IMG/VR virus record: IMGVR_UViG_2671180747_000001
Source: a virus
Lineage: Duplodnaviria; Heunggongvirae; Uroviricota; Caudoviricetes
Reading direction: 5' to 3' (one strand)
DNA: 18,738 nucleotides
The position numbers were made by a program, and so were the translations under genes. Below the pieces are notes generated by a model. That model was not told where the DNA came from and did not search any database. It saw nothing but the letters and a program-made list of their open reading frames with translations. Shown in pieces: positions 1-15,630 of this stretch (position 1 is its first letter; the number at the start of each line of letters is the position of its first letter).

Positions 1-2551
1 GCATTTCCGCCATCTCGTCCTTCAGCTGACTGTTGTCAATCTCTGCCCACAGCGCCTCTGCCAGATGCGTTTTTCCTATCTTTTCCCGGAAAAGTTCCAG
101 ATAGCCCGCAGCATCATTGCTCGCCCGTCCACTGGCTTCAACAAACGCGGATTTACCCACCAGATTGACGCTGCGCACGTAAAACCAGAAAACTTTCCCG
201 GGTTTAATCTGGCTGCCGGAGACGCTCCACTGGCTGCCTGTCCCCAGATAACGGGCAGAGGTTTCCACCTGTGCGGCGTCTGCAATTTTTGCCTCCGAAA
301 ACCAGAACTCAAACTGCACCGTCGGGTCATAAATGGTCAGTTTCGGGACTGCCGTTATCTGAAAATACCCCGGCGTCAGTTCAACACCGGCAGGCGCTGC
401 CGGTGCGTTAATCCGGAACGTGGTGGTGGCGGGTTCGCCCTGCTGGCCATAGCTGTTAATCGCCCTGACCGTCAGGGTGTATTCCCCGGGAGGCAGGCCA
501 CTGAAACGGTGCTCCGTATCGGCAGTGATGGCGGTGGTCAGCAGGCGGCTGTTCTCACCGCTTCCACTGGTCAGGCGCAGACTGAAGCGCACGCCCTTCA
601 CCACCCTCGGCGTGTCCCATTTCGCCAGCGCCAGATACTGGCTGTCAGCTGCGCTCACCTCCACCGTGAGGTGCTGTACTGCCGGTGGGATAACGCTGTT
701 CAGGGTGCCTGACTGCGGCTCAAAGCGGGCTCCGTTATCCACAATGGCTTCTTTTTCCGGTACGTGCTGCACTGCCGTGATGGCAAAGGTGCCGTCCGTG
801 TTTTCCCGGATGGAGACACAGCGGAACAGGCGACGGCGCAGTGACGGCAGGGAGAGTCCCCACACCCCGTATGTCTCCACACCATCAGGCAGGGTACTGA
901 CCTGTATCCGGTCCGGCGCGGGGTGTGCGGTGATGTCCACACTCACCGGCTTACCGCTGCCGTTAATCAGGTTCACCGTCGATGCACCTGTCCCCGGAAG
1001 TGTCACTTCACGGTCCAGCGTCAGGGTGCGGGTGGCAGCATCGATGGACAGGACACGTCCGCCGGTCAGGGTCCCGGCATAGTCGTTATCACAGATTTCA
1101 ATGATGTCACCGGGTGTGTGCCGCAGCCCCTGAGACCCGAGTGTGAAATCCACCGTCTGCGTTTCCAGCAGTTCGGTCTTTATCACCCACAGCCCGGCAC
1201 GGTGGGCCTGACCGCGGCTGGTACAGCCGAACGCGTCCATCTTCAGCAGGTTGCGTCCGTAGCGCAGTATGGCTTCCGGGTCTTCCACCAGTTCCGTGGA
1301 GGTCTGCCAGCCGTTCTGCGGGTCGGTGTAATTCACCTCCACCGCCGTGTGCCGGTCCTTCAGGGCACTGAAGCTGTAGCGGAACCCCACGCCGTTATCA
1401 TCCACCACCACATCGCTGTTGGTGTACGGCCACACCACATCCGACGGACGGTCCTGAACAAACGTCAGCGTCTGGCCGTTCCATACCGGCATACAGCGCA
1501 TCGCCGAGCAGAAATCACTGAGCACGTCCCATGCCTTACGCTGTTGTGCCAGGTACGCATTGAAGGTCATCCGCGGCTCTGTGCCCCCGAAACCATCCGG
1601 GACCGTCTGGTCGCAGTACTGCCCGATGGCATACAGCGCCCACTTGTCCACATCCGCCGCCCCCAGGCGTTTTCCCATCCCGTAGCGCGGGTGAGTCAGC
1701 ATGTCCCACAGGCACCAGGCCGGGTTGTTGCTGTATGCCGGTTTCAGACTGCCGTCCCAGATACCACTGTACGTGCGTTTTTCCGGGTCATAGTTTGACG
1801 GCACCTGGATGATGCGACCGCGGATATGGTAGTTCACCGTCATCTGCTGGCCGCCGAACTGCTCCGCATCCACCTGCAGCCCCACAATGGCCGTGTTCGG
1901 GTAGCACTGTTTCACATCGATGATTTCGGTGTATGACGACCAGAGCGTCTTATTCTGCAGCTGGTCCGTGGTGCTGTCCGCCGTCTCCCTGACCATCCGG
2001 ATGTTAAAGGGCCGGGGCGGCAGATTATCCAGAATCACCGACGTCAGGTACTGCGAGGTAGTCTTGCCGTTAATGGTGATATCCTTCTCCGTCACCCAGT
2101 TACCGTTACGCTCAAGCTGAATCAGCAGGCGGACAGAAGAGGGGTTACGGTCACCCTTTGAGGTGGTCTCCACCAGTGACTGCACCCCGAAGGTGACCCG
2201 CAGACGGTCAATGTTCGCTGACGTGATGGTGCGCGTCACCGGCTTTGCCTTCGTCACCTCCACGCCCAGTGCGGTTTCCGCCCCGGAGGACTCAAAGCCT
2301 TCCGGCGGTGTCTGCTCCTGCTCCCCGGCACGCCAGACGGCGGTCACACCGTGTATCACGGGATTACCGTCCGTGTCCGTCAGCGGGGTTTTGTTCACCA
2401 GAATACTCTGCAGTCCCTTCACCGGGCCTTCCACCGGTCCCTCACCGATGGCATCAATCACGCTCATCATCTGCGTGGATTTGAGATTATCCTTCGCCTC
2501 ACGCGGTGTGTGCGCCTTGCCGCCGCCTTTGCCCACGGAATCCCCCTTCAT
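1..2551 (-). CDS. J: Central tail fibre / host-specificity protein (lambda J-like), N-terminal ~850 codons; the 3' end lies beyond the window start
   Basis: ATG at 2551 (plus-strand 'cat' 2549-2551). Manual translation gives [47 protein letters not shown]..., which matches my recollection of the lambda J N-terminus and stays J-like to position 1. Frame checked at 2463, 940 and the window start. Absent from the ORF track, presumably because there is no stop inside the window. Confidence 0.85.
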
Positions 2552-2575
2552 CGTCCGCTGCCGGACACTGTTGAT

Positions 2576-2609
2576 GTATAAAAACAACAGGCACCCCGGA
2601 GAGTGCCTG
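2576..2609 (-). terminator. Putative intrinsic terminator/attenuator after the small ORF: 7-bp stem (2588-2594 / 2603-2609), 8-nt loop, then UUGUUUUUAU on the minus-strand RNA
   Basis: Inverted repeat caggcac...gtgcctg followed on the minus strand by a U-rich tract (plus-strand gtataaaaacaa at 2576-2587). Read by eye, no folding energy computed. Confidence 0.35.
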
Positions 2610-2611
2610 CA

Positions 2612-2707
2612 TCATGACGGAATAAAAATTCTGAATATCTTCACATTTTCACAAACTGACTGTGGCGCTGATAATTTCGCTGCGTTAGTGTTTTTTTGCC
2701 GTGACAT
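2612..2707 (-). CDS. Hypothetical small protein (31 aa, MSRQKNTNAAKLSAPQSVCENVKIFRIFIPS) in an AT-rich insert between I and J; possible moron
   Basis: ATG at 2707, stop TGA at 2612-2614. Consensus Shine-Dalgarno AAGGAG (plus-strand 'ctcctt' 2717-2722) with a 9-nt spacer. Sits in a ~240 bp AT-rich gap. No homology recognised; below the ORF-track size cut-off. Confidence 0.3.
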   Translation of the reverse strand: MSRQKNTNAAKLSAPQSVCENVKIFRIFIPS

Positions 2708-2749
2708 AAAAAACAACTCCTTAACACTAATCTTCATTTGTCTGAATCT

Positions 2750-2791
2750 CCCGCAGCTCCGCGATCACTGCGGGATTTTTTTATTCTTTTT
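2750..2791 (+). terminator. Putative rho-independent terminator for plus-strand (antisense) transcription: stem cccgcag (2750-2756) / ctgcggg (2768-2774), then atttttttattcttttt
   Basis: GC stem followed by a long T tract on the plus strand, directly abutting the stop codon of I (2790-2792). Read by eye. Confidence 0.4.
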
Positions 2792-3470
2792 ACCCCTGCC
2801 GTCCGATAACCACCACTTTCCCGTCACCGCCTTCATCACGGGTGCTGATGTCCTGGGATATCCGTCGTGAACCAACCAGCATTTCACCGTAAGGCACCGG
2901 CATCGGGTTACCCTGGGCAATCATGTTATCCAGCGAGGAAAAGTACGTGTTCTGTCTGCCGTTATCCGTTGCGCGGTAATCCGGTGTTTTTGCCTTCGGG
3001 GCCAGCATCTGGGCCACACCGCCCAGAATCATGCTGGCACCCAGTGAAAACAGCATCGTGGTGGCAGAAAAACCACCGGCTGCCAGGGCTGAACCCCATA
3101 ACGCCATCGTGGCTCCGGCCGTGAAGAACGACCCCACGATGGCCGCCGCCCCCAGCACAATCTGCAGTCCGCCCTTTCCGGCACCGGCCAGTCGCGGCAC
3201 AATGTGGATGACCGTTCCCTCACCCAGCTGTTCGTGAAGGCGGGCATACACCGCCTCCGGTGCCGTGTCCTCACCGGCAATACGTATCTGGTACCAGCCT
3301 TCGTTCATCTGACGGCGAAAGCCCGGCACCTGCATCGACAGTGCGCGGATGGCTTCCGCTGCCGTGTTCACATACAGGCTGAGGCGGCGGCCAAATCGTT
3401 GTAAATCCCCGTGAAGGCAGATGCGTGCCAGTGGCGGTGACGCCAGACTGAATGCGTTCGTCGTTGCCAT
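2790..3470 (-). CDS. I: Tail tip assembly protein (lambda I-like)
   Basis: 226-aa ORF. N-terminus MATTNAFSLASPPLARICLHGDLQRFGRRL... resembles lambda gpI (MAATHTLPLASPGMARICLYGDLQRFGRR... from memory). Lies between K and J as in lambda. Confidence 0.9.
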   Translation of the reverse strand: MATTNAFSLASPPLARICLHGDLQRFGRRLSLYVNTAAEAIRALSMQVPGFRRQMNEGWYQIRIAGEDTAPEAVYARLHEQLGEGTVIHIVPRLAGAGKGGLQIVLGAAAIVGSFFTAGATMALWGSALAAGGFSATTMLFSLGASMILGGVAQMLAPKAKTPDYRATDNGRQNTYFSSLDNMIAQGNPMPVPYGEMLVGSRRISQDISTRDEGGDGKVVVIGRQG

Positions 3471-4111
3471 TTTTCGGAATACCTCTCCCGTTTACTCAGT
3501 TGTTCAGGCAGATGGTGAAGCAGTTCACCGTTGCCGCAGTAAATGGCGGCATGGTTGGCCACCGATGCGCCAAAGCAGCACAGCAGAATATCGCCCGCCT
3601 GTGCAGAGGACAGGGGCACCCGGTAAAAGCCCGTGGCCTCCATATTGTCCAGGTACAGGTTCTGGCCGTTGCGCCACCACTCATCCTCGCGGTGAAAATC
3701 CGGCATTTCAGTCCCCGCCAGATGGTATGCATCCCGGAACAGCGTGTAACAGTCCGTCACCCCGTGCGCAAAGCGCCGTCCGGTCAGGTGCGGAACGCAG
3801 CGGAATTTGTGAATGTCACCCCGGCAGACCAGCCACCAGGGCAGGGCACTTTTTATCTGCAGCCGCCGGTCAGCCTCGCTCAGCCAGGGCAGCCCACCGG
3901 GATGACTGTGGACCAGTGCCACAATCTCCCCCTGCATCTCTGCCCGCAGCCAGTCTTCCGGTGCGATACGAAAATACGCCTCCGGCTCTGCGGAAATATT
4001 CACACAAGGGATATACCGCTCCCCCTCCGGCGTGCTTATCACGAAGCCGCACGACTCCGCAGGCGCACACCGCCGGGCATGTGCCAGAATCGCTGATTCA
4101 GTCTGTGTCAT
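3368..4111 (-). CDS. K: Tail tip assembly protein (lambda K-like), with JAB/MPN metalloprotease and NlpC/P60 cysteine-peptidase motifs
   Basis: Start refined to the ATG at 4111 (MTQTESAILAHARRCAPAESCGF...), 10 nt after L; the ORF-track start at 4372 would overlap L. JAMM motif HSHPGGLPWLSEAD and NlpC/P60-type DCYTL...H are visible. 3' end overlaps I by ~100 nt, as K/I do in lambda. Confidence 0.85.
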   Translation of the reverse strand: MTQTESAILAHARRCAPAESCGFVISTPEGERYIPCVNISAEPEAYFRIAPEDWLRAEMQGEIVALVHSHPGGLPWLSEADRRLQIKSALPWWLVCRGDIHKFRCVPHLTGRRFAHGVTDCYTLFRDAYHLAGTEMPDFHREDEWWRNGQNLYLDNMEATGFYRVPLSSAQAGDILLCCFGASVANHAAIYCGNGELLHHLPEQLSKRERYSEKWQRRTHSVWRHRHWHASAFTGIYNDLAAASACM

Positions 4112-4121
4112 AAACCGGGAT

Positions 4122-4820
4122 TTACTGCGAAAGTTTATTAATGGAAAGGAAACCGCCAAAATTGCCGACATTCCTGCGCAGTTCACACCCGCGCATGCAC
4201 TTGCTGCATCTGTCCTTACGGATATCGGTGGTGGGTTTATCGAACTCATCCGCCACCGCCCCGCCCGTGTAACCACACTCATCAGAGCGGTAGGTCCACA
4301 TACAGGTGTTCGCCAGCATGATGCGGCCGGGAAACAAAGCACCGTCCGTCTCGGTCGGTGTGGCCAGCACAAACGAGGCCGTCATGGCCGTCAGCGCTGA
4401 CATCTGCTCCACCACCCACCGGTCCGTCAGCTCCTGCTCCGGGTCTGCCTCAGGATTGCCTGCCACAAAGTTCACCGCATCCAGAAAACGCGCATACACC
4501 CGGCGGCGGACCACCGTGGCACCCACCAGGCTCTGCAAATCCTCCGCCATCCCGGTGACAAGGCCAAACAGATTGGACACCGTCAGCGACGGGCGGGCAC
4601 TGCTGCCCTTTCCGTTCATCTCAAAGCCGCTGCCCTCAATCGGGTACGCCTCATACTTCCGCCCCTGCCAGGTCACCGGCTCCCCTTTTTCATTCAGCTC
4701 ATTGCAGAAAAAATACCGCTCACCGCCCTGCACCGTCAGGTCGATTTCCCAGAGCACCACCCGCGGTGACTGCTCTGACTTAACCGACTCGTTCAGGCTT
4801 GCTTCGTGAATATCCTGCAT
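4122..4820 (-). CDS. L: Tail tip protein (lambda L-like)
   Basis: 232-aa ORF, same length as lambda gpL. Cys-rich C-terminus (CGYTGG...CSKCMRGC). Position between M and K. Confidence 0.9.
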   Translation of the reverse strand: MQDIHEASLNESVKSEQSPRVVLWEIDLTVQGGERYFFCNELNEKGEPVTWQGRKYEAYPIEGSGFEMNGKGSSARPSLTVSNLFGLVTGMAEDLQSLVGATVVRRRVYARFLDAVNFVAGNPEADPEQELTDRWVVEQMSALTAMTASFVLATPTETDGALFPGRIMLANTCMWTYRSDECGYTGGAVADEFDKPTTDIRKDRCSKCMRGCELRRNVGNFGGFLSINKLSQ

Positions 4821-5149
4821 CAGTTCACCACCTGCTTAAACTCCGCGCTGAACTCAACGCGCAACATCCCGACCCGCGCAGACCACCCGGCACAGGTCAC
4901 CTTTATCTGCCGGTATGCATAGGGTGGCTTCCACAAAAATGCCTTCCAGCCCCCGTGCTCTGCCAGGAACGCTTCCAGATGCCGGGCCTCCTCCCGGCTC
5001 ACGGAAAGCATCACCCGGTATGTTTTCAGGTCAGCATTCAGCCCTGCCGCCATACGCTGTGAGTACCCGTCACCAAAACGCACTTCACGCACCGATGGCT
5101 GCGAGTTCACCTCCATATCCGGCTTCACTTTCCAGCGAAAGGTTTTCAT
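4820..5149 (-). CDS. M: Tail tip protein (lambda M-like)
   Basis: 109-aa ORF. MKTFRWKVKPDMEVNSQPSVREVRFGDGYSQR... closely matches lambda gpM as I remember it (MKTFRWKVKPGMDVASVPSVRKVRFGDGYSQR...). Confidence 0.9.
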   Translation of the reverse strand: MKTFRWKVKPDMEVNSQPSVREVRFGDGYSQRMAAGLNADLKTYRVMLSVSREEARHLEAFLAEHGGWKAFLWKPPYAYRQIKVTCAGWSARVGMLRVEFSAEFKQVVN

Positions 5150-7725
5150 CGCCCGCTCCCTGATAACATACCGCCATCACGCAACTGCAGCCGGAGCTCA
5201 TCCTGCGCCCCCTTGCGGGCCATGTCATACACCGCCTTCATCAGCTGCGGCCCCGCCTGTCCGTTGATACCGTCGTTCTGAATCACCACGTGATTGTTCT
5301 GATTAAAATTAATACCTTCCGCCCGCCGCATCTGCGCCGGACTTCCGGCACCACCCACATAACCCCCTTCCGCATAGCCGCGCATCAGACGGTAAAGATT
5401 CCCCACGCCTATCCGGCTGGTTGCCTCCTTCGTGAAGACAAACTCCCCGCGGTGAACTATCCCCGCAGGCTCATATTTGCCGCCCGTGCCCGTAAATCCG
5501 CCGGTCGCAAAATGAAAGTTCGCCGCCGCAGCCTGAATGGCCGTCCCCGTGGAGGCAGACGCCCCACCACCGAAAGCACCACCAATGGCGCTGCCGATAC
5601 GCCCGACAATGCCCACCATGGCCTGTTTAAGCAGGATTTCTGTCATCATGGACAGCACCGAACGGGTGAATCCCCGCCAGTCTGCCTCTGCACCGGTCAG
5701 CATCGCCGCCATATTCTGTGCAATACCGTCAAAGGTCTGCGTGGCCGCGCTTTTAACCTGCGAAAAACTGTCCGTCGCACTTTCCGCCCACTCGCCCCAG
5801 CCGGACTTCATCCCGGCCATCCAGCTTCCACGAAGCAGCTCCTCCGCAGACCAGGTGTTCTTCAGTGCCGATGTGGCCTTCGCCAGCGCAGCCGGATTAT
5901 CACCGTACACGTCACGAAGGCGCTGCTCTTCCGACTCCCGCTGCGCCTGACGGTCGGTGAGGCCGCGGGCTTTTGCGCTGATGGCGGCCTGCTTCGCGCT
6001 TTGCTGCTGTTCAAACCGCGCCGCCTGCTGTGCCAGCTCATTCAGCCGCTTCTGGTGTTCAACCTTGTCGCCCAGCTCAGCCAGCTGGCGTTTGTACTCC
6101 AGCGTCTCTTTCTCATGGGCCAGCAGGGATTTTTCCTGCTCAGATAACTGCCGTTTCGTGGCGGCCTCTTTCAGGACCACATACTGATTTTCCGCTTTCC
6201 ATAAATCCCGCCGCTGCTGGCTGATTTTTTCATTCGCACCGGCATGCTTTTCCAGCGTCCTGAGCTCGGTTTCAAGCGCCAGCAGCGCCGCATGCGCCCG
6301 GTCTTCCTGACGCTCACCGGCTGACACTTTAACACCTGACGACTTCGGCTTTTTCAGCGTCGATTCATAATCCTTTTTCGCCGCCGCCATCAGCGTGTTG
6401 TAATCCGCCTGCAGGATTTTCCCGTCCTTCAGGGCCTTGTTCAGTTCTTCCTGACGGGCGGTATATTTCTCCAGCGGCGACAGCAGGCGTTCATACGCTT
6501 TCTGCGCCTCTCCGGTATACTTCAGCTGTGACGCCTCACGCTCAGCCCTGTCCCTTGCCGCCAGTTCACCGGCTTTTTCCATATCCGACTGCAGCGTTGC
6601 CGCCGCCAGCCCCAGACGGGCATTTTCCCGGTCATCCCATGCACCCTGAAGGTTGGCCCGGAACGAGGCGGTTTTACCGCGGCGCTGGCTCCGGCTCTGG
6701 TACCACTGCCATTTTTTATCCGCCTCATCAAATGCCTTCTGCGCACTGGCGAGCATATCCGCTGAGGATTCCGGACGACCGATATCCAGAATGGCATCCC
6801 ACATCGATTTGAATGCCTTCCCTGTTTTATCCGCCCAGGTCTCCAGTGTTCCCATGTTTTCTTTCAGGCGACGGGTCTGCTCATCAAAGCCTTTCGTGGC
6901 GATATCGTTCGCCGCCTGTAAGGCCCCGGCCTCGTCTCCGGAACGCTGCAGTTGTGCAACATACGCAATCTGCTCTGCCGTCACGTTACGGAACTGGCGC
7001 GCCATCGCCATCAGTCCCGACGTCGGGTCAGTGGTCAGCTTCCCGAAGGCTTCAGCGACTTTATCCACCTCCACACCGGATGCAGACGCAAAACGCGCGA
7101 CACTCTGGTTAATGGCATCAAACTGTTCACCACCACGCACACCGGCATTCACCAGGGCTGCCAGTGACTCTCTCGCCTGGTTAAACGTCAGCCCTGCTGC
7201 CTGCCCGGCTCTTGAGAGCGTCAGCATACGATCGGCAGTCAGTCCGGCCTGATTGCCGGAAAGGACCAGCGTTTTATTAAATTCTGAAAGCGTGGAATCC
7301 CCCTGGTACCAGGCGTACGCCAGCGCACCTGTCGCCACCGCCAGCGAGGTGACCCCGACCATCGGCAGGGTGATCGCACCGGCAAGCCCCCTGAACATGG
7401 GGATCATCCCGCCGAAGGAGTCCTTCACCTGACCGCCCTGTTGCAGCAGGATGAGCCAGGGATTCTGACCACCGGCAAGCTGCGTGGCGATATCCGTAAA
7501 CTGTGCGGGCAGGGTACGCATGGCTGCTTTATACTGCCCGACGGAAATCCCGGCTTTTTGTGCGGCCAGCGCCTGACGGTTCAGACTCTGCTCAACGGCA
7601 CCGGCGGTTTTTCTGGCGTCGGTATCCAGTCCTGAAAAATGACGCCTTACCCGGCTCATCTGCTCATCGAAACGGACAGCATCCAGACTCAGGTCAATAA
7701 CAAGATCACCAACCGGCTGGGACAT
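5146..7725 (-). CDS. H: Tail tape measure protein (lambda H-like)
   Basis: 859-aa ORF. N-terminus MSQPVGDLVIDLSLDAVRFDEQMSRVRRHFSG... and C-terminal ...GIVHRGEFVFTKEATSRIGVGNLYRLMRGYA... match lambda gpH (853 aa). Long coiled-coil, Ala/Gln/Glu-rich centre. Confidence 0.92.
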   Translation of the reverse strand: MSQPVGDLVIDLSLDAVRFDEQMSRVRRHFSGLDTDARKTAGAVEQSLNRQALAAQKAGISVGQYKAAMRTLPAQFTDIATQLAGGQNPWLILLQQGGQVKDSFGGMIPMFRGLAGAITLPMVGVTSLAVATGALAYAWYQGDSTLSEFNKTLVLSGNQAGLTADRMLTLSRAGQAAGLTFNQARESLAALVNAGVRGGEQFDAINQSVARFASASGVEVDKVAEAFGKLTTDPTSGLMAMARQFRNVTAEQIAYVAQLQRSGDEAGALQAANDIATKGFDEQTRRLKENMGTLETWADKTGKAFKSMWDAILDIGRPESSADMLASAQKAFDEADKKWQWYQSRSQRRGKTASFRANLQGAWDDRENARLGLAAATLQSDMEKAGELAARDRAEREASQLKYTGEAQKAYERLLSPLEKYTARQEELNKALKDGKILQADYNTLMAAAKKDYESTLKKPKSSGVKVSAGERQEDRAHAALLALETELRTLEKHAGANEKISQQRRDLWKAENQYVVLKEAATKRQLSEQEKSLLAHEKETLEYKRQLAELGDKVEHQKRLNELAQQAARFEQQQSAKQAAISAKARGLTDRQAQRESEEQRLRDVYGDNPAALAKATSALKNTWSAEELLRGSWMAGMKSGWGEWAESATDSFSQVKSAATQTFDGIAQNMAAMLTGAEADWRGFTRSVLSMMTEILLKQAMVGIVGRIGSAIGGAFGGGASASTGTAIQAAAANFHFATGGFTGTGGKYEPAGIVHRGEFVFTKEATSRIGVGNLYRLMRGYAEGGYVGGAGSPAQMRRAEGINFNQNNHVVIQNDGINGQAGPQLMKAVYDMARKGAQDELRLQLRDGGMLSGSGR

Positions 7726-11072: not shown

Positions 11073-12101
11073 TTATTTCACCTGTACCACCACAAACTCA
11101 TCCGGATCCGGCAGCACCATCAGCGGAGCGGACTGCGTCATGGTGAATTCACGGGCCGGATCGCCCACAGTCAGCCAGTGTTTCGGATAACGGGAAGAGG
11201 CCACCACACCTTCGGACAACGCCTGCGCATCCTGAATGGCACCATAGCAACGAATGCCCTCTGCTGCCGTATTCCCCAGGACCAGTGTGCCCTCCGGCAG
11301 ATAACGTTTTTCGGTACCGTCCTCTGCCACATAAGACGTTTTCGCCACCACAATGGCCAGATCGCCGTAATACCCCTTGAAGGACACCACCGCCCCCAGG
11401 TCTTTCACTGCCGTTTCGAGTTGTGAATTTGAGCCGCGACGGGTATCCAGTTTTTCGCGGAACAGCTTAAAGCCATTCAGCAGACGCCAGACCGTACCGT
11501 CCATAATGGCGATATTCACAAGGCCGCTGGCCTGATCGCAGTAGAGGTCAATATCATGCGTCGGATCAAACGTATCACGGTCCTGCTCAGACCATTTTTT
11601 ACCGTCAGCCTGCTCAATGTTATTTCCTTCAGAGCGCCCGAAATCCACCTCGACAGTATCAAACTGATCCCCTTCCATGGTGTATTTGCCATACAGCACG
11701 GCATTCACCGCCTGCATTTCTTCCACCTGGACAATGGCGTGCTCTTCCTGTTTGAGGTTATCGGTAATGATACGCAGACGACGGTAGGCCGGGTCATTCA
11801 GCTGAGCCGGATCTTCACCAGGAAGGCGCTCAACCGCCTGCTGGTAATTAAATTCGTGTTTGGGCTTGACGTAGCCCGGACGTAACACGCGGGTTTCACC
11901 ACCGCGATGGCGAAGCACTTTTCCTTCAACAACCGGGGAGACATAGGCTGCCACCGGCGTTTTTCCGGTAATTTTGTCCAGCATCACCTCTTCGGTGTGG
12001 AAATTCACCGTACGGCGGAAAAACAGCTCCAGAAACAGCGCACGGAATTTCACTTTTTGTTCGGTATAACCGAGTAACTGGCGGGTCGTAAACAATCCCA
12101 T
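11073..12101 (-). CDS. E: Major capsid protein (lambda E-like)
   Basis: 342-aa ORF (lambda gpE is 341 aa). ...KLDTRRGSNSQLETAVKDLG...YPKHWLTVGDPAREFTMTQSAPLMVLPDPDEFVVVQV matches lambda gpE. Confidence 0.95.
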   Translation of the reverse strand: MGLFTTRQLLGYTEQKVKFRALFLELFFRRTVNFHTEEVMLDKITGKTPVAAYVSPVVEGKVLRHRGGETRVLRPGYVKPKHEFNYQQAVERLPGEDPAQLNDPAYRRLRIITDNLKQEEHAIVQVEEMQAVNAVLYGKYTMEGDQFDTVEVDFGRSEGNNIEQADGKKWSEQDRDTFDPTHDIDLYCDQASGLVNIAIMDGTVWRLLNGFKLFREKLDTRRGSNSQLETAVKDLGAVVSFKGYYGDLAIVVAKTSYVAEDGTEKRYLPEGTLVLGNTAAEGIRCYGAIQDAQALSEGVVASSRYPKHWLTVGDPAREFTMTQSAPLMVLPDPDEFVVVQVK

Positions 12102-12129
12102 AAATCAGTTCCTTTCATTCAGAAATCAG

Positions 12130-12151
12130 TCAGGCCACCATGGTGGCCTGA
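12130..12151 (-). promoter_or_regulatory. Perfect 22-bp palindrome (tcaggccaccatggtggcctga) in the D-E intergenic spacer; predicted strong mRNA hairpin
   Basis: Seen directly: the sequence equals its own reverse complement. Lies between the D stop (12159-12161) and the E start (12101). Confidence 0.4.
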
Positions 12152-12158
12152 TAACGTG

Positions 12159-12506
12159 TTACGGCAGAGCCGCGTGACTCAGGGCTGTACCGGCAAAGGC
12201 ATTTGCCTTTTTGTGTTCATCCACACTGTCAGGCCAGCGGATTGCCTCCGTCGCAAAGGTCCCCGACTTGTAATAGGTCAGCACCGTCTCTGTGCCTTCA
12301 AGCGGCAGTACCAGTATGCCAGCCGCACTACCGGCTTTCTGTCCATCCCAGACCACCAGTTTCCCGCTGGCTTCATCCAGCATCAGGGGCGTCAGAGCCG
12401 GTGTTGCCTGAGAAATCCCGCTGCTGCCTGTGGCGGTATGAGCCGGATCATTACCGGCAAAAATACGTACTTCCGCACGTTGTTCAGTGATGGTTTTCGT
12501 CACCAT
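12159..12506 (-). CDS. D: Head decoration protein (lambda D-like)
   Basis: 115-aa ORF. ...NDPAHTATGSSGISQATPALTPLMLDEASGKLVVWDG...YKSGTF...KKANAFAGTA matches lambda gpD. Confidence 0.92.
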   Translation of the reverse strand: MVTKTITEQRAEVRIFAGNDPAHTATGSSGISQATPALTPLMLDEASGKLVVWDGQKAGSAAGILVLPLEGTETVLTYYKSGTFATEAIRWPDSVDEHKKANAFAGTALSHAALP

Positions 12507-12542
12507 TTTGTTAAAACCTCATATTGATGGTCAGCACTGACT

Positions 12543-13145
12543 TCATGGCATGGCCATGAGCATTTTCACGTCCGCATCACCGTCTGCCGACGTCTGTGAC
12601 ACGCCACCCTGCACGGCTGCCGGTGAATGGTTCGCCATGATGCGTTCAAACATGGCGGTTGTGGATGCAGAAACCGGTTCTGCTTTATCCGGCGATGAGG
12701 ACAGAATGTCGCGGGCAGCCTCCACCGTCATTCCGGGAAACGCCGCCAGTTTTTCAGCCTGCGCCTCAGCCCCTTTTGCCTCATCCAGAGCCATAATCTG
12801 ATCACGGAGTGAGGGTCCGGCATCCGCCTGCGGTGAAGCCGCCAGGATCGGGCGGGCTTTTTCCACCGTCATATCCGGCATCGCCGCCAGCGTTGCCGCC
12901 AGTTGTTCACGACCTTTAGCTTCTTCACACGCCATAATGCGATCGGCTTCACTCTGCGTGGATGCCACCGGCTGCTGTGGTGCTGCCGCGGTCAGAATCG
13001 CCCGGGCCTGTTCAACGCTCATGCCCTGTTGTCCTGCCAGCATCGTGGCAAGGTGTTCACGTCCTTTCGCTTCCTGACACGCCAGGATCCCCATCACTCG
13101 CTGGTTCTCCTGCGCGGCAGCTTCCGTTGCAGTTAATTGCGGCAT
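12543..13145 (-). CDS. Putative nested scaffolding protein (Nu3-like), from an in-frame internal start within C
   Basis: Internal ATG at 13145 (codon 302 of C, MPQLTATEAAAQ...) preceded by AGGAGG (plus-strand 'cctcct' region 13150-13156). In lambda, Nu3 is made the same way from the 3' third of C. About 200 aa here because of the repeat expansion. Confidence 0.45.
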   Translation of the reverse strand: MPQLTATEAAAQENQRVMGILACQEAKGREHLATMLAGQQGMSVEQARAILTAAAPQQPVASTQSEADRIMACEEAKGREQLAATLAAMPDMTVEKARPILAASPQADAGPSLRDQIMALDEAKGAEAQAEKLAAFPGMTVEAARDILSSSPDKAEPVSASTTAMFERIMANHSPAAVQGGVSQTSADGDADVKMLMAMP

Positions 13146-14048
13146 AGTGCCTCCTGTATCATGTGTGTTCAGCGCCGCAGCCATCACGCTGATGGCATCC
13201 GACGCATTGATTAATTCATCCGCCAGCCCGGCCTCAATGCCGGACTGACCTTCAAAAACGGCGGCCTCTGTTCCCGTGACTGCATCAACAGACAGACCGG
13301 TATACATCGCCACTTTTTCGGCAAACATCCGGCGCGCCGCATCAATCCGCTGCTGCATGTCCTGGCGAACCTCTTCCGGCAACGCTTCAAACTGATTGCC
13401 ATCCACCTTGTGCGCCCCTGAGTAAATCAGCGTGATATCCACACCGGCCTGCGCCAGATGACCGGCATAGCTGACATGGCTCATCATCACGCCAATGGAG
13501 CCGATACGGGATGTCTGGGTAACCAGCCGTCGGGAGCAGGCCGACGCCAGCAGCATGGCTGCAGAACAGGCCGTGTCATTGCACAGTGCCCAGACCGGCT
13601 TCTGCTGACGGAGGCGGTAAATCATGTCAGCACAGTCAAACGCACCGGCGGCCTGCCCGCCCGGACTGTCAATGTCCAGCAGTACACCCCGCACCTGGCT
13701 ATCCGCCATTGCCTGCTGAAGACAGGCGACAATGCCGTCATAGCCTGTCATTCCGGAAAATGGCCGCATACCCCCCAGCCGGTGCACCAGCGTGCCTGTG
13801 ACCGGCAGTACAGCAATACCGTTCACCACCCGGTAAACACGGGCCGGTCGTTTACCTCCGGCCATGTACTCGTCCGTTTCAGCCAGCATTCCGGGTGCAT
13901 CAAGCTGTACCTGCTGTTGTGGTACCGAAAGACTTGCTGCCCCCATCTCGCGCCCGAGCGCGCAAAAGAAAACCCGCGCATAGGCGGGCTCCAGAAGCAG
14001 CGGTTCATTGAATGCTGCTGCAATAATGTGTGAAAGATTACGTCTCAC
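12543..14048 (-). CDS. C: Head maturation protease / scaffold (lambda C-like, ClpP/S49-type) with an expanded C-terminal repeat region
   Basis: 501-aa ORF (lambda gpC is 439 aa). The N-terminal two-thirds (MRRNLSHIIAAAFNEPLLLEPAYARVFFCALG...SIGVMMSHVSYAG...ITLIYSGAHKVDGN...) matches lambda gpC. The C-terminal third carries three tandem ~47-aa repeats. Confidence 0.9.
   Translation of the reverse strand: MRRNLSHIIAAAFNEPLLLEPAYARVFFCALGREMGAASLSVPQQQVQLDAPGMLAETDEYMAGGKRPARVYRVVNGIAVLPVTGTLVHRLGGMRPFSGMTGYDGIVACLQQAMADSQVRGVLLDIDSPGGQAAGAFDCADMIYRLRQQKPVWALCNDTACSAAMLLASACSRRLVTQTSRIGSIGVMMSHVSYAGHLAQAGVDITLIYSGAHKVDGNQFEALPEEVRQDMQQRIDAARRMFAEKVAMYTGLSVDAVTGTEAAVFEGQSGIEAGLADELINASDAISVMAAALNTHDTGGTMPQLTATEAAAQENQRVMGILACQEAKGREHLATMLAGQQGMSVEQARAILTAAAPQQPVASTQSEADRIMACEEAKGREQLAATLAAMPDMTVEKARPILAASPQADAGPSLRDQIMALDEAKGAEAQAEKLAAFPGMTVEAARDILSSSPDKAEPVSASTTAMFERIMANHSPAAVQGGVSQTSADGDADVKMLMAMP
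12690..13088 (-). repeat. Three in-frame tandem repeats of ~141 nt (~47 aa; ILACQEAKGRE... / IMACEEAKGRE... / IMALDEAKGAE...) in the C/Nu3 scaffold region, plus a degenerate fourth fragment
   Basis: Units at codons 321-370, 371-417 and 418-453 of C, visible in both protein and nucleotide sequence; the units have diverged. As I recall it, lambda has a single copy of this motif. Confidence 0.6.
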
Positions 14049-15630
14049 GTGGTGTTGTCTCCTCTTCCGGCCTGCGACTCTCCGCTATCTGCTGCTGATA
14101 CGCCTGCGCTATCCACACCGGACGTGAGAGTCCGGCTTTTTCCCGCTCTGCAGATTCCCTGACCTGCTGGCGGAAAATGTCCTGATAATCCTCGCCCATC
14201 AGCGCCAGCTCTTTCTCATACGTGCTCAGTCCGGAATCAATACGCATCACCGATTCCTGAACCTCCTTGAGCCCGTCAATGGCCATTCTTCCGGCACCAA
14301 TCCACTCAGCCCGTGACCAGGCTGAACGCGCCTGATAAAAATCAAAACGTGCCCGTGGCGGACGAATAATCCCCCGAAGAAGTGCCTCTTCCAGCCAGCA
14401 GGAAAACATCTGCGTGGCCAGCCGGGCCGCAATAAATTTTCGCCGCCCCATAAAATAGCGCCACGACTCATTGGCGGAGGCGCGGGCACTTGAGTAACTG
14501 ACCTTCGAGTAATCACGGGACAACTGTTCGTAGGAAACGCCAAGACCGGCAGCGATATACCGCAGCAGCGCCTGTTCAAGCGCCGAAAATCCATTGTCTG
14601 AATCCTGCGCGGTCTGAAGTTTCAGATCATCACCAGGGAAAAGGTGCGGAATTTTGACACCGCCCAGCGTCACGCTATTCGTGTCATACCAGGTGGAGAA
14701 CTTATCCAGAATATTAATAAGCGGATTATCCTTCTGCCCCTGCGGCGCACCGGCGATATATTCAAAGGCCTTTTCGGTATCAAGTTCACTTTCAATCGTC
14801 GCTGCATACATGGCTTTAACAATGGCCGACTGAAGCTGTGTTGCCTGCAGGGAATCGAGCATCTTCAGCCGTTCCATGACGCTGTAAAACTGGTTGGCCC
14901 CACGGGTCTGCCCGTCCTCCACCGGCTCGAAAATATGCAGCATGGCCGGACGCCCGGTGGGAAGTTCACGCGGGATCCGTTCCCATCGTCCACTCCCGGA
15001 GCGAGGAAAATCATCCTCACAGATATGGTACGCAACGGCACGGCCATATCGATCAACCTCCACCCCGGCCCGCAGAAAACGGTTCCCGATACCGTGTCCT
15101 GGCGTGTCCACCCGTTTCGGACTCACGGCTTTAAAACGCGTACGAAACAGTTGCGTGCTCTCCGTATCCCAGACCGGCTGCACAAAGATTTCGCCGTTAA
15201 ACGCATGAACGCCCACACCTTCACGGATAAATTCCGTAAACGTGCGTTTCCCTTCCACGTCGATCTCACCAAACATCCCTTCTGCGTATTCTGACCAGGC
15301 CGCCTCCACCTCATCGACAAAACTTTTTGCCGCGGTCTCCCGCATCCCCAGCCAGCGCCAGTTCGGACGGTAGCTAATCAGAAACATATGCCCGACAATG
15401 TGATCCTTATGCAGGGCCACCGCATTGGCCGCTATTCCGTTATTGCGCACCAGATCATCTGCACGGGCATTCCCCAGACGCAACGCGGGCAGCAGGGCCG
15501 CATCGGCACTCTGCGAGGGTGGCAACCACTCTGCCATTTGCCCGCCAAATCCTGCACCGCCCCCGTTGTAGCTGAGGCTCTCCCGAAGCGGAACGCCGTT
15601 CACATCAATCAGGACAGGCTTTCGTTTCAT
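14038..15630 (-). CDS. B: Portal protein (lambda B-like)
   Basis: 530-aa ORF (lambda gpB is 533 aa). ...FEPVEDGQTRGANQFYSVMERLKMLDSLQATQLQSAIVKAMYAATIESELDT...YEQLSRDYSKVSYSSARASANESW... matches lambda gpB. Confidence 0.95.
   Translation of the reverse strand: MKRKPVLIDVNGVPLRESLSYNGGGAGFGGQMAEWLPPSQSADAALLPALRLGNARADDLVRNNGIAANAVALHKDHIVGHMFLISYRPNWRWLGMRETAAKSFVDEVEAAWSEYAEGMFGEIDVEGKRTFTEFIREGVGVHAFNGEIFVQPVWDTESTQLFRTRFKAVSPKRVDTPGHGIGNRFLRAGVEVDRYGRAVAYHICEDDFPRSGSGRWERIPRELPTGRPAMLHIFEPVEDGQTRGANQFYSVMERLKMLDSLQATQLQSAIVKAMYAATIESELDTEKAFEYIAGAPQGQKDNPLINILDKFSTWYDTNSVTLGGVKIPHLFPGDDLKLQTAQDSDNGFSALEQALLRYIAAGLGVSYEQLSRDYSKVSYSSARASANESWRYFMGRRKFIAARLATQMFSCWLEEALLRGIIRPPRARFDFYQARSAWSRAEWIGAGRMAIDGLKEVQESVMRIDSGLSTYEKELALMGEDYQDIFRQQVRESAEREKAGLSRPVWIAQAYQQQIAESRRPEEETTPRET

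Follow-up and report, generated by a model that had tools for sequence, protein, structure and literature searches.

In bacteriophage lambda, the S49 prohead protease gpC and the scaffold Nu3 are encoded in one frame, with the scaffold gene nested in the protease gene (NC_001416: C, 4418-5737; nu3, 5132-5737). Nu3 as annotated in RefSeq starts at codon 239 of C and is 201 aa long; it is built of about 60 residues of the end of the protease domain, a Ser/Thr/Ala/Gln-rich linker of about 50 residues, one copy of a short module (ENSRIMGILNCEEAHGREEQARVLAETPGMTVKTARRIL) and a tail. The protein interacts with C, with E and with itself, the Nu3-E interaction having been detected by two-hybrid, and it is required for portal protein B to be incorporated, and is part of the B-C-Nu3 initiator complex (PMC3224144). 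Nu3 was reported to be intrinsically disordered yet functional (Medina et al. 2011, as cited in PMC11922011 and PMC11565965). In the scaffolds of P22, phi29, SPP1 and 80alpha, the shell-binding elements are C-terminal helix-turn-helix or helical motifs (PMC11565965, PMC11922011).

The second described system is that of phage 21, whose head operon record (M81255.1) contains annotations for gene 5 (501 aa), for a gene 6 nested in frame within it and provided with a putative RBS, and for three repeat_regions, the 'Tri1 box', 'Tri box' and 'Tri3 box', marked 'function unknown; putative'. The Tri boxes were reportedly first described by Smith & Feiss in Gene 126:1-7 (1993). The complete genome record OL657228.1, in which the products are named 'capsid protease/scaffolding protein' and 'scaffolding protein', is the phage 21 genome of Feiss et al. 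2022 (PMC9119081). Phage 21 was sequenced twice independently, by two methods, with the same gene recovered both times.

The window analyzed here, a stretch of 18,738 nt from a tailed virus (Caudoviricetes; IMG/VR record IMGVR_UViG_2671180747_000001), is 100% identical to a prophage in E. coli STEC2018-607 (NZ_CP075697.1). On its minus strand, positions 12543-14048 hold a GTG-initiated gene of 501 aa, comprising an S49 prohead protease and a C-terminal scaffold part (the analogue of phage 21 gene 5 and lambda C), which overlaps the end of the portal gene. Pfam recognizes Peptidase_S49 (PF01343) at aa 146-293 (E 1.6e-35), and the PHROG head maturation protease family phrog_53 is matched end to end (E 1.8e-225); some PHROG profiles fuse portal and protease (phrog_21). 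The conserved Ser of the S49 domain is present, Ser162 being aligned, within a CSA motif, with lambda Ser166, which is reportedly catalytic (Medina et al. 2010). The RefSeq protein WP_032181872.1 ('S49 family peptidase', E. coli STEC2018-607) is 100% identical to the 501-aa product. In NZ_CP075697.1, the genes for the small and large terminase, a W-like joining protein and the portal precede the protease/scaffold gene, and those for the head decoration protein, the major capsid protein, FI, FII and the tail follow it. Because of the S49 domain, the phrog_53 match and this lambda-like gene order, we assign 12543-14048 as the gpC/Nu3-type gene of a lambda-like head module on the minus strand. 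An earlier sequence-only reading of the window had named it a C/Nu3-type gene, and both the domain and the place between the portal and the decoration/major-capsid genes agree with that identification.

A megablast search of phage records returned a full-length, ungapped match at 95.3% nt identity to phage 21, in M81255.1 as well as in OL657228.1, with a gene length of 1506 nt common to the window and phage 21. The two share the nested start with its RBS, three units at equal codons and the neighbouring genes, and the differences between them are allelic only, although the window matches the STEC2018-607 prophage and not phage 21 itself. Projected on the window, the boxes lie at 13078-12975 (Tri1), 12938-12828 (Tri) and 12797-12684 (Tri3). 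All features that define the phage 21 type, namely the S49 domain with its Ser, the head-module position, the three tandem Tri units in its 3' third and the codon-302 start with an RBS, are found here, and we therefore classify the window gene as a phage 21-type gp5/gp6 protease-scaffold, the triplication of which is already known as the Tri boxes, a point that the sequence-only reading had missed. The features of the lambda type, a single module and a codon-239 start, are replaced by three modules and an Ile at the aligned position; the window gene is thus best regarded as a homologue of lambda gpC/Nu3 that does not have the lambda-type architecture. Common to both are the module, of which lambda has one copy, the tail motif and the gene order, and their protease parts are about 54% identical in aa; they differ in that lambda has one unit instead of three, and a Ser/Thr/Ala/Gln-rich linker of about 50 aa that is absent in the window. 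The repeat region is very probably the scaffold-encoding C-terminal part of a prohead protease/scaffold gene of the phage 21 type in a lambdoid prophage, with its modules triplicated.

The repeat search revealed one family, with three 97-nt copies at 12697-12793, 12838-12934 and 12988-13084, the start-to-start spacings of which (141 and 150 nt) are both multiples of 3 and differ by 3 codons. The 97-nt copies are 64-70% identical in nt to the middle copy, and the units are 30-36% diverged in nt. Tandem Repeats Finder reported nothing in the repeat region, because the copies are too diverged. In the protein, the whole array (13109-12657) is in frame and tandem, with units of about 47-53 aa: unit 1 (12951-13109, minus strand; aa 314-366, starting ENQRVMGILACQEAKGREHLATMLAGQQGMSVEQARAIL) includes the phage 21 Tri1 box, unit 2 (12810-12950, minus strand; aa 367-413, starting EADRIMACEEAKGREQLAATLAAMPDMTVEKARPIL) the 'Tri box', and unit 3 (12657-12809, minus strand; aa 414-464, starting LRDQIMALDEAKGAEAQAEKLAAFPGMTVEAARDIL) the Tri3 box. 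The consensus of the module is IMxxxEAKGRExLAxxLAxxPGMTVExARxIL, followed by a Pro/Ala/Ser/Gln-rich linker. Pairwise aa identities among the three units are 24/38, 20/45 and 24/38, and 18 positions are invariant across all three. The local-alignment scores of the unit pairs lie 12-16 SD above those of 500 residue shuffles, not one of which scored as high; hence, the threefold repeat is real and far above chance. The three in-frame tandem copies and the 3-codon length difference described by the sequence-only reading are therefore confirmed, the former by the repeat search and the protein self-comparison, the latter by the spacings of 141 and 150 nt.

The same reading had seen a degenerate fourth fragment behind the third unit, and this we could not confirm. 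From aa 465 onward (AMFERIMANHSP), the protein has no significant similarity to the units (z ~ -0.2), and lambda, phi80, Alteromonas P24, Proteus PM87 and Ruegeria V18 have a homologous motif, aFxxFMxxxSP, behind their single unit; a decayed unit was ruled out on both grounds. Since the motif follows the single unit in these relatives, aa 465-501 (12546-12656, minus strand; MFERIMANHSP, an acidic stretch and LMAMP) are read as the conserved C-terminal tail of the family. The tail motif reads ALDRLMQGAP in lambda, AFDAFMQSHSP after the third unit of Gifsy-1, ALDVAMANTEQP in Alteromonas phage P24, AFKKAMDEGEQP in Proteus phage PM87 and SFETHMNAADHP in Ruegeria phage V18. The extreme C-terminus (12546-12560, minus strand) also follows a family-conserved pattern, L(L/M)xx(I/M/T)P with an acidic stretch ahead, and ends in LMAMP in the window, LLNTPV in lambda and LLMSIPG in Gifsy-1. 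This conserved end may be a second interaction or processing signal.

Inside the gene, a nested in-frame gene (12543-13145, minus strand) starts at Met302 and encodes a predicted scaffold of 200 aa, of the phage 21 gene 6 or Nu3-like kind. A Shine-Dalgarno sequence, AGGAGG, lies 4 nt upstream of the internal ATG (13150-13155, minus strand; GATACAGGAGGCACT-ATG). Position 13145 is the exact position of the annotated gene 6 start in phage 21, and the sequence leading into the codon-302 start, AGGAGGCACT-ATG, is identical between the window and phage 21. Moreover, 12543-13145 maps on the gene 6 CDS of M81255.1 and on the 'scaffolding protein' CDS of OL657228.1, and the homologue of the AGGAGG site is annotated in both records as a putative ribosome_binding_site for gene 6. 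The Met and its GG(T/R) context are conserved in Gifsy-1, phi80 and lambda. At the level of sequence, the claim that an internal ATG at 13145 with an AGGAGG site yields a product of about 200 aa is thus well founded, the ATG being the phage 21 gene 6 start. In lambda, the annotated Nu3 start lies at codon 239 versus codon 302 in the window, and the window, phage 21 and a phi80-like protein all have Ile where lambda has its codon-239 Met.

The full-length protein is, as had been stated, about 60 aa longer than lambda gpC (501 versus 439 aa, +62), but the further idea that the scaffold itself is lengthened does not hold: the nested product has 200 aa versus 201 aa in lambda Nu3, because its start lies 63 codons further downstream. 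This product is built of the three modules and the tail. Lambda also has AGGAGGgcgaATG at gpC codon 309 (coordinate 5342 of NC_001416; locus excerpt 1018-1045), to be compared with window 13143-13155 (minus strand); this site is homologous to the gene-6 start of phage 21 and would yield a 131-aa product. It is conceivable, though unlikely, that the conserved AGGAGG-ATG found at the gene-6 position is where scaffold translation originally began throughout the family, and that lambda may use it as well.

An HMM of the unit matched lambda gpC (439 aa) once, and phage 21 and the window three times each; phi80, Proteus PM87, Alteromonas P24 and Ruegeria V18 have one unit each, and Salmonella Gifsy-1 (498 aa) has three. 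A search of 1.84 billion representative proteins with the three-unit profile gave 573 matches at E ≤0.001, and among the best 150 of these 573 one unit was found in 134, two in 10 and three in 5; among proteins of at least 350 aa within the same best 150, 53 of the 56 were single-unit, with the unit lying a median of 48 residues before the C-terminal end. The general state of S49 prohead protease-scaffolds is thus a single module near the C-terminus, and three are the state of the 21/Gifsy lineage. The earlier statement that the repeat is an expansion relative to lambda is correct, as lambda has one unit and not the same three.

The Gifsy-1 prohead protease STM2605 (NC_010392.1; 498 aa) shares with the window three positionally orthologous units, an internal Met in the context GGTM and the tail motif, and differs in its nt identity of about 73% in the protease part, its aa identity of about 60% in the scaffold part and its Salmonella host. 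In the three-unit lineages (the window, Gifsy-1, P0213 and P0214), the units cluster by position and not by genome. In each lineage, unit 1 clusters with the lone units of lambda and phi80 and has in common with them a three-residue insert (VMG/IMG-IL) which units 2 and 3 lack; because of this clustering and the shared insert, we regard unit 1 as ancestral, and units 2 and 3 as products of one common derived copy. Since the units are positionally orthologous across the E. coli and Salmonella lineages, the triplication is judged to be older than the split between them. Relative to phage 21, dN/dS is 0.18-0.33 per unit (Nei-Gojobori). Relative to Gifsy-1, for which dS is saturated and the ratios are approximate, it is 0.16 for unit 2 and 0.26 for unit 3 (unit 1 gives no ratio), and 0.14 for the three units together, at about 0.1 for the protease domain. 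These values (0.14-0.33) indicate purifying selection on all three units. The view that the duplication is old and not an assembly artefact is borne out by the same gene in phage 21 and in about 1866 genomes, as well as by the orthologous units of Gifsy-1.

Compared with phage 21, unit 3 of the window and the residues directly before Met302 belong to a more diverged lineage than the rest (dS 0.66 versus about 0.1). For unit 3 (12657-12809, minus strand), dS is 0.66 and dN 0.12, dS being about 0.1 in units 1 and 2, and two allelic forms of the unit can be distinguished (…AFPGMTVEAARDILSSSPDK… and …ACPGMTVESARAVLAAGSGK…). This difference in dS suggests a mosaic recombination breakpoint within the repeat region, with two unit-3 alleles.

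Of 5426 complete E. coli genomes, 2032 contain a match to the gene, and in 1866 the cover reaches at least 80%; the gene occupies a median of 2 and at most 6 places per genome. An uninterrupted 1506-nt match, i.e., the three-unit form, was present in 35 of 36 evenly sampled E. coli records with at least 80% cover, and the 1506-nt gene also occurs in the isolated phages PhiR12_1/2/4/5, PhiR5_1, ev017, 4A7, 1W, 3W and phage 21. The independent and long-read support for the repeat count that the sequence-only reading had recommended seeking thus exists, and comes from about 1866 complete genomes, from isolated phages and from phage 21. Given its annotation in phage 21 and its presence in the prophages of about one third of complete E. 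coli genomes, the three-unit gene is evidently an ordinary lineage feature. A very large number of database entries are 'partial' proteins whose ends fall within the gene (in one protein search, mostly contig-end fragments), which is consistent with short-read assemblies breaking at a multi-copy prophage gene.

Among proteins at least 80% identical, there are rare variant forms with 2, about 2.6, 4 and 6 units. Two-unit variants have 451 or 452 aa and four-unit variants 551 aa; a 482-aa variant lacking 19 residues of unit 2 (P0041) is very abundant, in at least 1000 contigs. The occurrence of forms with 2, about 2.6 and 4 units shows that a count of exactly three is not strictly required. Two variants were examined in the DNA. 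The two-unit gene of O157:H7 (CP038421.1) is the phage 21 sequence minus 147 nt, with 8 nt of junction homology, and in LS992828.1, where the head module is intact, a 150-nt tandem duplication whose junction shows 5 nt of homology has produced the four-unit gene. In CP038421.1 (locus excerpt 2501-4567), the adjoining major capsid gene retains only 88 codons and is joined to the tail-tube region; because of this truncation the prophage is defective, and the two-unit form there is no proof of function. Both variants look like rare illegitimate events, derived from the three-unit form through microhomology of 5-8 nt, and junction homology of this length rules out homologous exchange between units as their origin. 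The window units share exact identity over 8-11 nt at most. The proposal that the repeat is a recombination hotspot is therefore only weakly supported: copy-number variants do occur, but with shared identity this short and junctions of 5-8 nt, the word overstates what are rare microhomology events starting from the three-unit form.

Two further proteins deserve mention. In P0001 (657 aa), 156 aa are duplicated, the internal start among them, which would give two nested starts. P0146, a partial E. coli protein of a separate lineage, has four units; units 2-4 hardly differ from one another, and this near identity points to recent expansion or homogenisation. Either P0146 or P0001 could be an assembly error.

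When the 200-aa product was modelled alone with AlphaFold2, the mean pLDDT was 62.5; with a 25-sequence alignment it rose to 68, the units reaching about 74-81. Both runs placed short helices in every unit and low-confidence Pro/Ala/Ser/Gln linkers between them, with pTM of 0.27-0.29. The helical prediction for the units is of moderate confidence and, because of the low pTM, no fixed inter-unit packing is predicted, suggesting units arranged as 'beads on a string'. When the 200-aa product was searched by sequence against the PDB, only chance matches and no solved homologue emerged, and Foldseek of the AlphaFold model against the PDB returned nothing significant; Myb-like tandem three-helix Foldseek matches had E >8 and were disregarded. 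A P22-like helix-turn-helix coat-binding domain was sought likewise, with no PDB sequence match at E <2 and no Foldseek match at E ≤0.001. In Pfam and NCBIfam, the repeat module has no model, the S49 domain alone being recognized in the protein. At the nucleic acid level, no Rfam families were detected, no promoter-like sites in 12000-14200, and no Chi sites; thus the repeats give no sign of a concealed RNA or regulatory element. Antisense ORFs at 12550-12801, 12903-13136 and 12962-13147 are unsupported and were set aside as by-products of the coding strand.

Based on these observations we propose that one reading frame would give two products, the 501-aa protease with its scaffold part and a 200-aa Nu3-like scaffold from ATG 13145. 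Each unit would consist of a helical module of about 40 residues and a flexible linker, of the kind found once near the C-terminus of S49 prohead proteases generally; in the 21/Gifsy lineage this module underwent two old duplications, and purifying selection has kept all three copies. Considering the interactions reported for Nu3 and the helical shell-binding motifs of other scaffolds, we tentatively suggest that the module could be a contact tying the scaffold/protease to the inside of the assembling shell, through the major capsid protein or the portal. The likeness to P22 gp8 and the phi29, SPP1 and 80alpha scaffolds, in which a short C-terminal helical module accompanies a partly disordered remainder, is an analogy only and, unlike in the P22-type scaffolds, the module of the window occurs as tandem copies fused to a protease. 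With three modules in cis, binding would become multivalent, replacing the longer N-terminal segment and the dimerisation of lambda Nu3. One might go further and suppose that the number of modules (1-4 in nature) sets the valency between scaffold and shell or portal, and that the 21/Gifsy lineage traded the N-terminal, protease-derived oligomerising segment of Nu3 for three modules; we consider this extension unlikely.

The identity of the partner is one point on which other readings diverge. The units might recruit the portal and act in the initiator complex, binding gpB/gp4 and not the major capsid protein, so that the triplication would help nucleation at the portal vertex. In favour of this stand the listing of lambda Nu3 both among the factors needed to incorporate portal B and as a member of the B-C-Nu3 complex (PMC3224144), the overlap of the protease/scaffold gene with the portal gene, and the joining of portal and protease in phrog_21. 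However, an interaction of Nu3 with E was detected by two-hybrid as well (PMC3224144), and we find a portal-only role rather doubtful. Alternatively, the extra units may have no specific binding role at all, being either filler that restored a scaffold of about 200 aa after the start shift or a neutral expansion of a flexible region. The conservation of nested length (200 versus 201 aa) despite a different composition would fit such filler, as would the natural two- to four-unit variants, but each unit evolves at a dN/dS of 0.14-0.33 with the same 18 invariant positions kept, positional orthologues have been retained across the E. coli and Salmonella lineages, and the two-unit variant that was examined sits in a prophage with a truncated capsid gene. 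Dispensable filler of this kind seems quite improbable.

The remaining alternatives fare worse. It had been proposed that a longer scaffold, resulting from the expansion, could alter procapsid geometry, or that the repeat may be an active recombination hotspot, for which the 62 aa by which the full-length protein exceeds lambda gpC and the existence of copy-number variants can be cited. Yet the nested scaffold does not exceed Nu3 in length, the major capsid protein is lambda-sized (342 aa in the window versus 341 aa in lambda) and the genomes of phages with the 21-type gene measure 42.9-54.4 kb; judged from these capsid protein and genome sizes only, an altered capsid geometry is not supported. 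The exact matches of at most 8-11 nt, the junctions of 5-8 nt and the overwhelming predominance of the three-unit form likewise speak against a hotspot, and we regard either version as very improbable. That the repeat is an artefact of assembly or collapse is already refuted and has practically no chance of being true, given the 100% match in a complete genome, the identical gene length in about 1866 genomes and in phage 21 (two methods), and the 30-36% nt divergence of the units. As a discovery, the triplication carries little weight, being publicly annotated in the phage 21 head operon and present in about one third of complete E. coli genomes. What modest gain there is lies in the comparison: a single module is general among S49 prohead protease-scaffolds, three are old and selectively maintained in the 21/Gifsy lineage, and derivatives with two to four units are natural. 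These natural unit-number variants constitute a ready series for testing what the scaffold module binds.

Outside the repeat, a perfect hairpin with a 9-bp stem (TCAGGCCACCATGGTGGCCTGA) was noticed at 12130-12151 (minus strand), followed by a T-poor tail. It sits in the short gap between the decoration-protein and major capsid genes, and may be an mRNA-stability or translational element.
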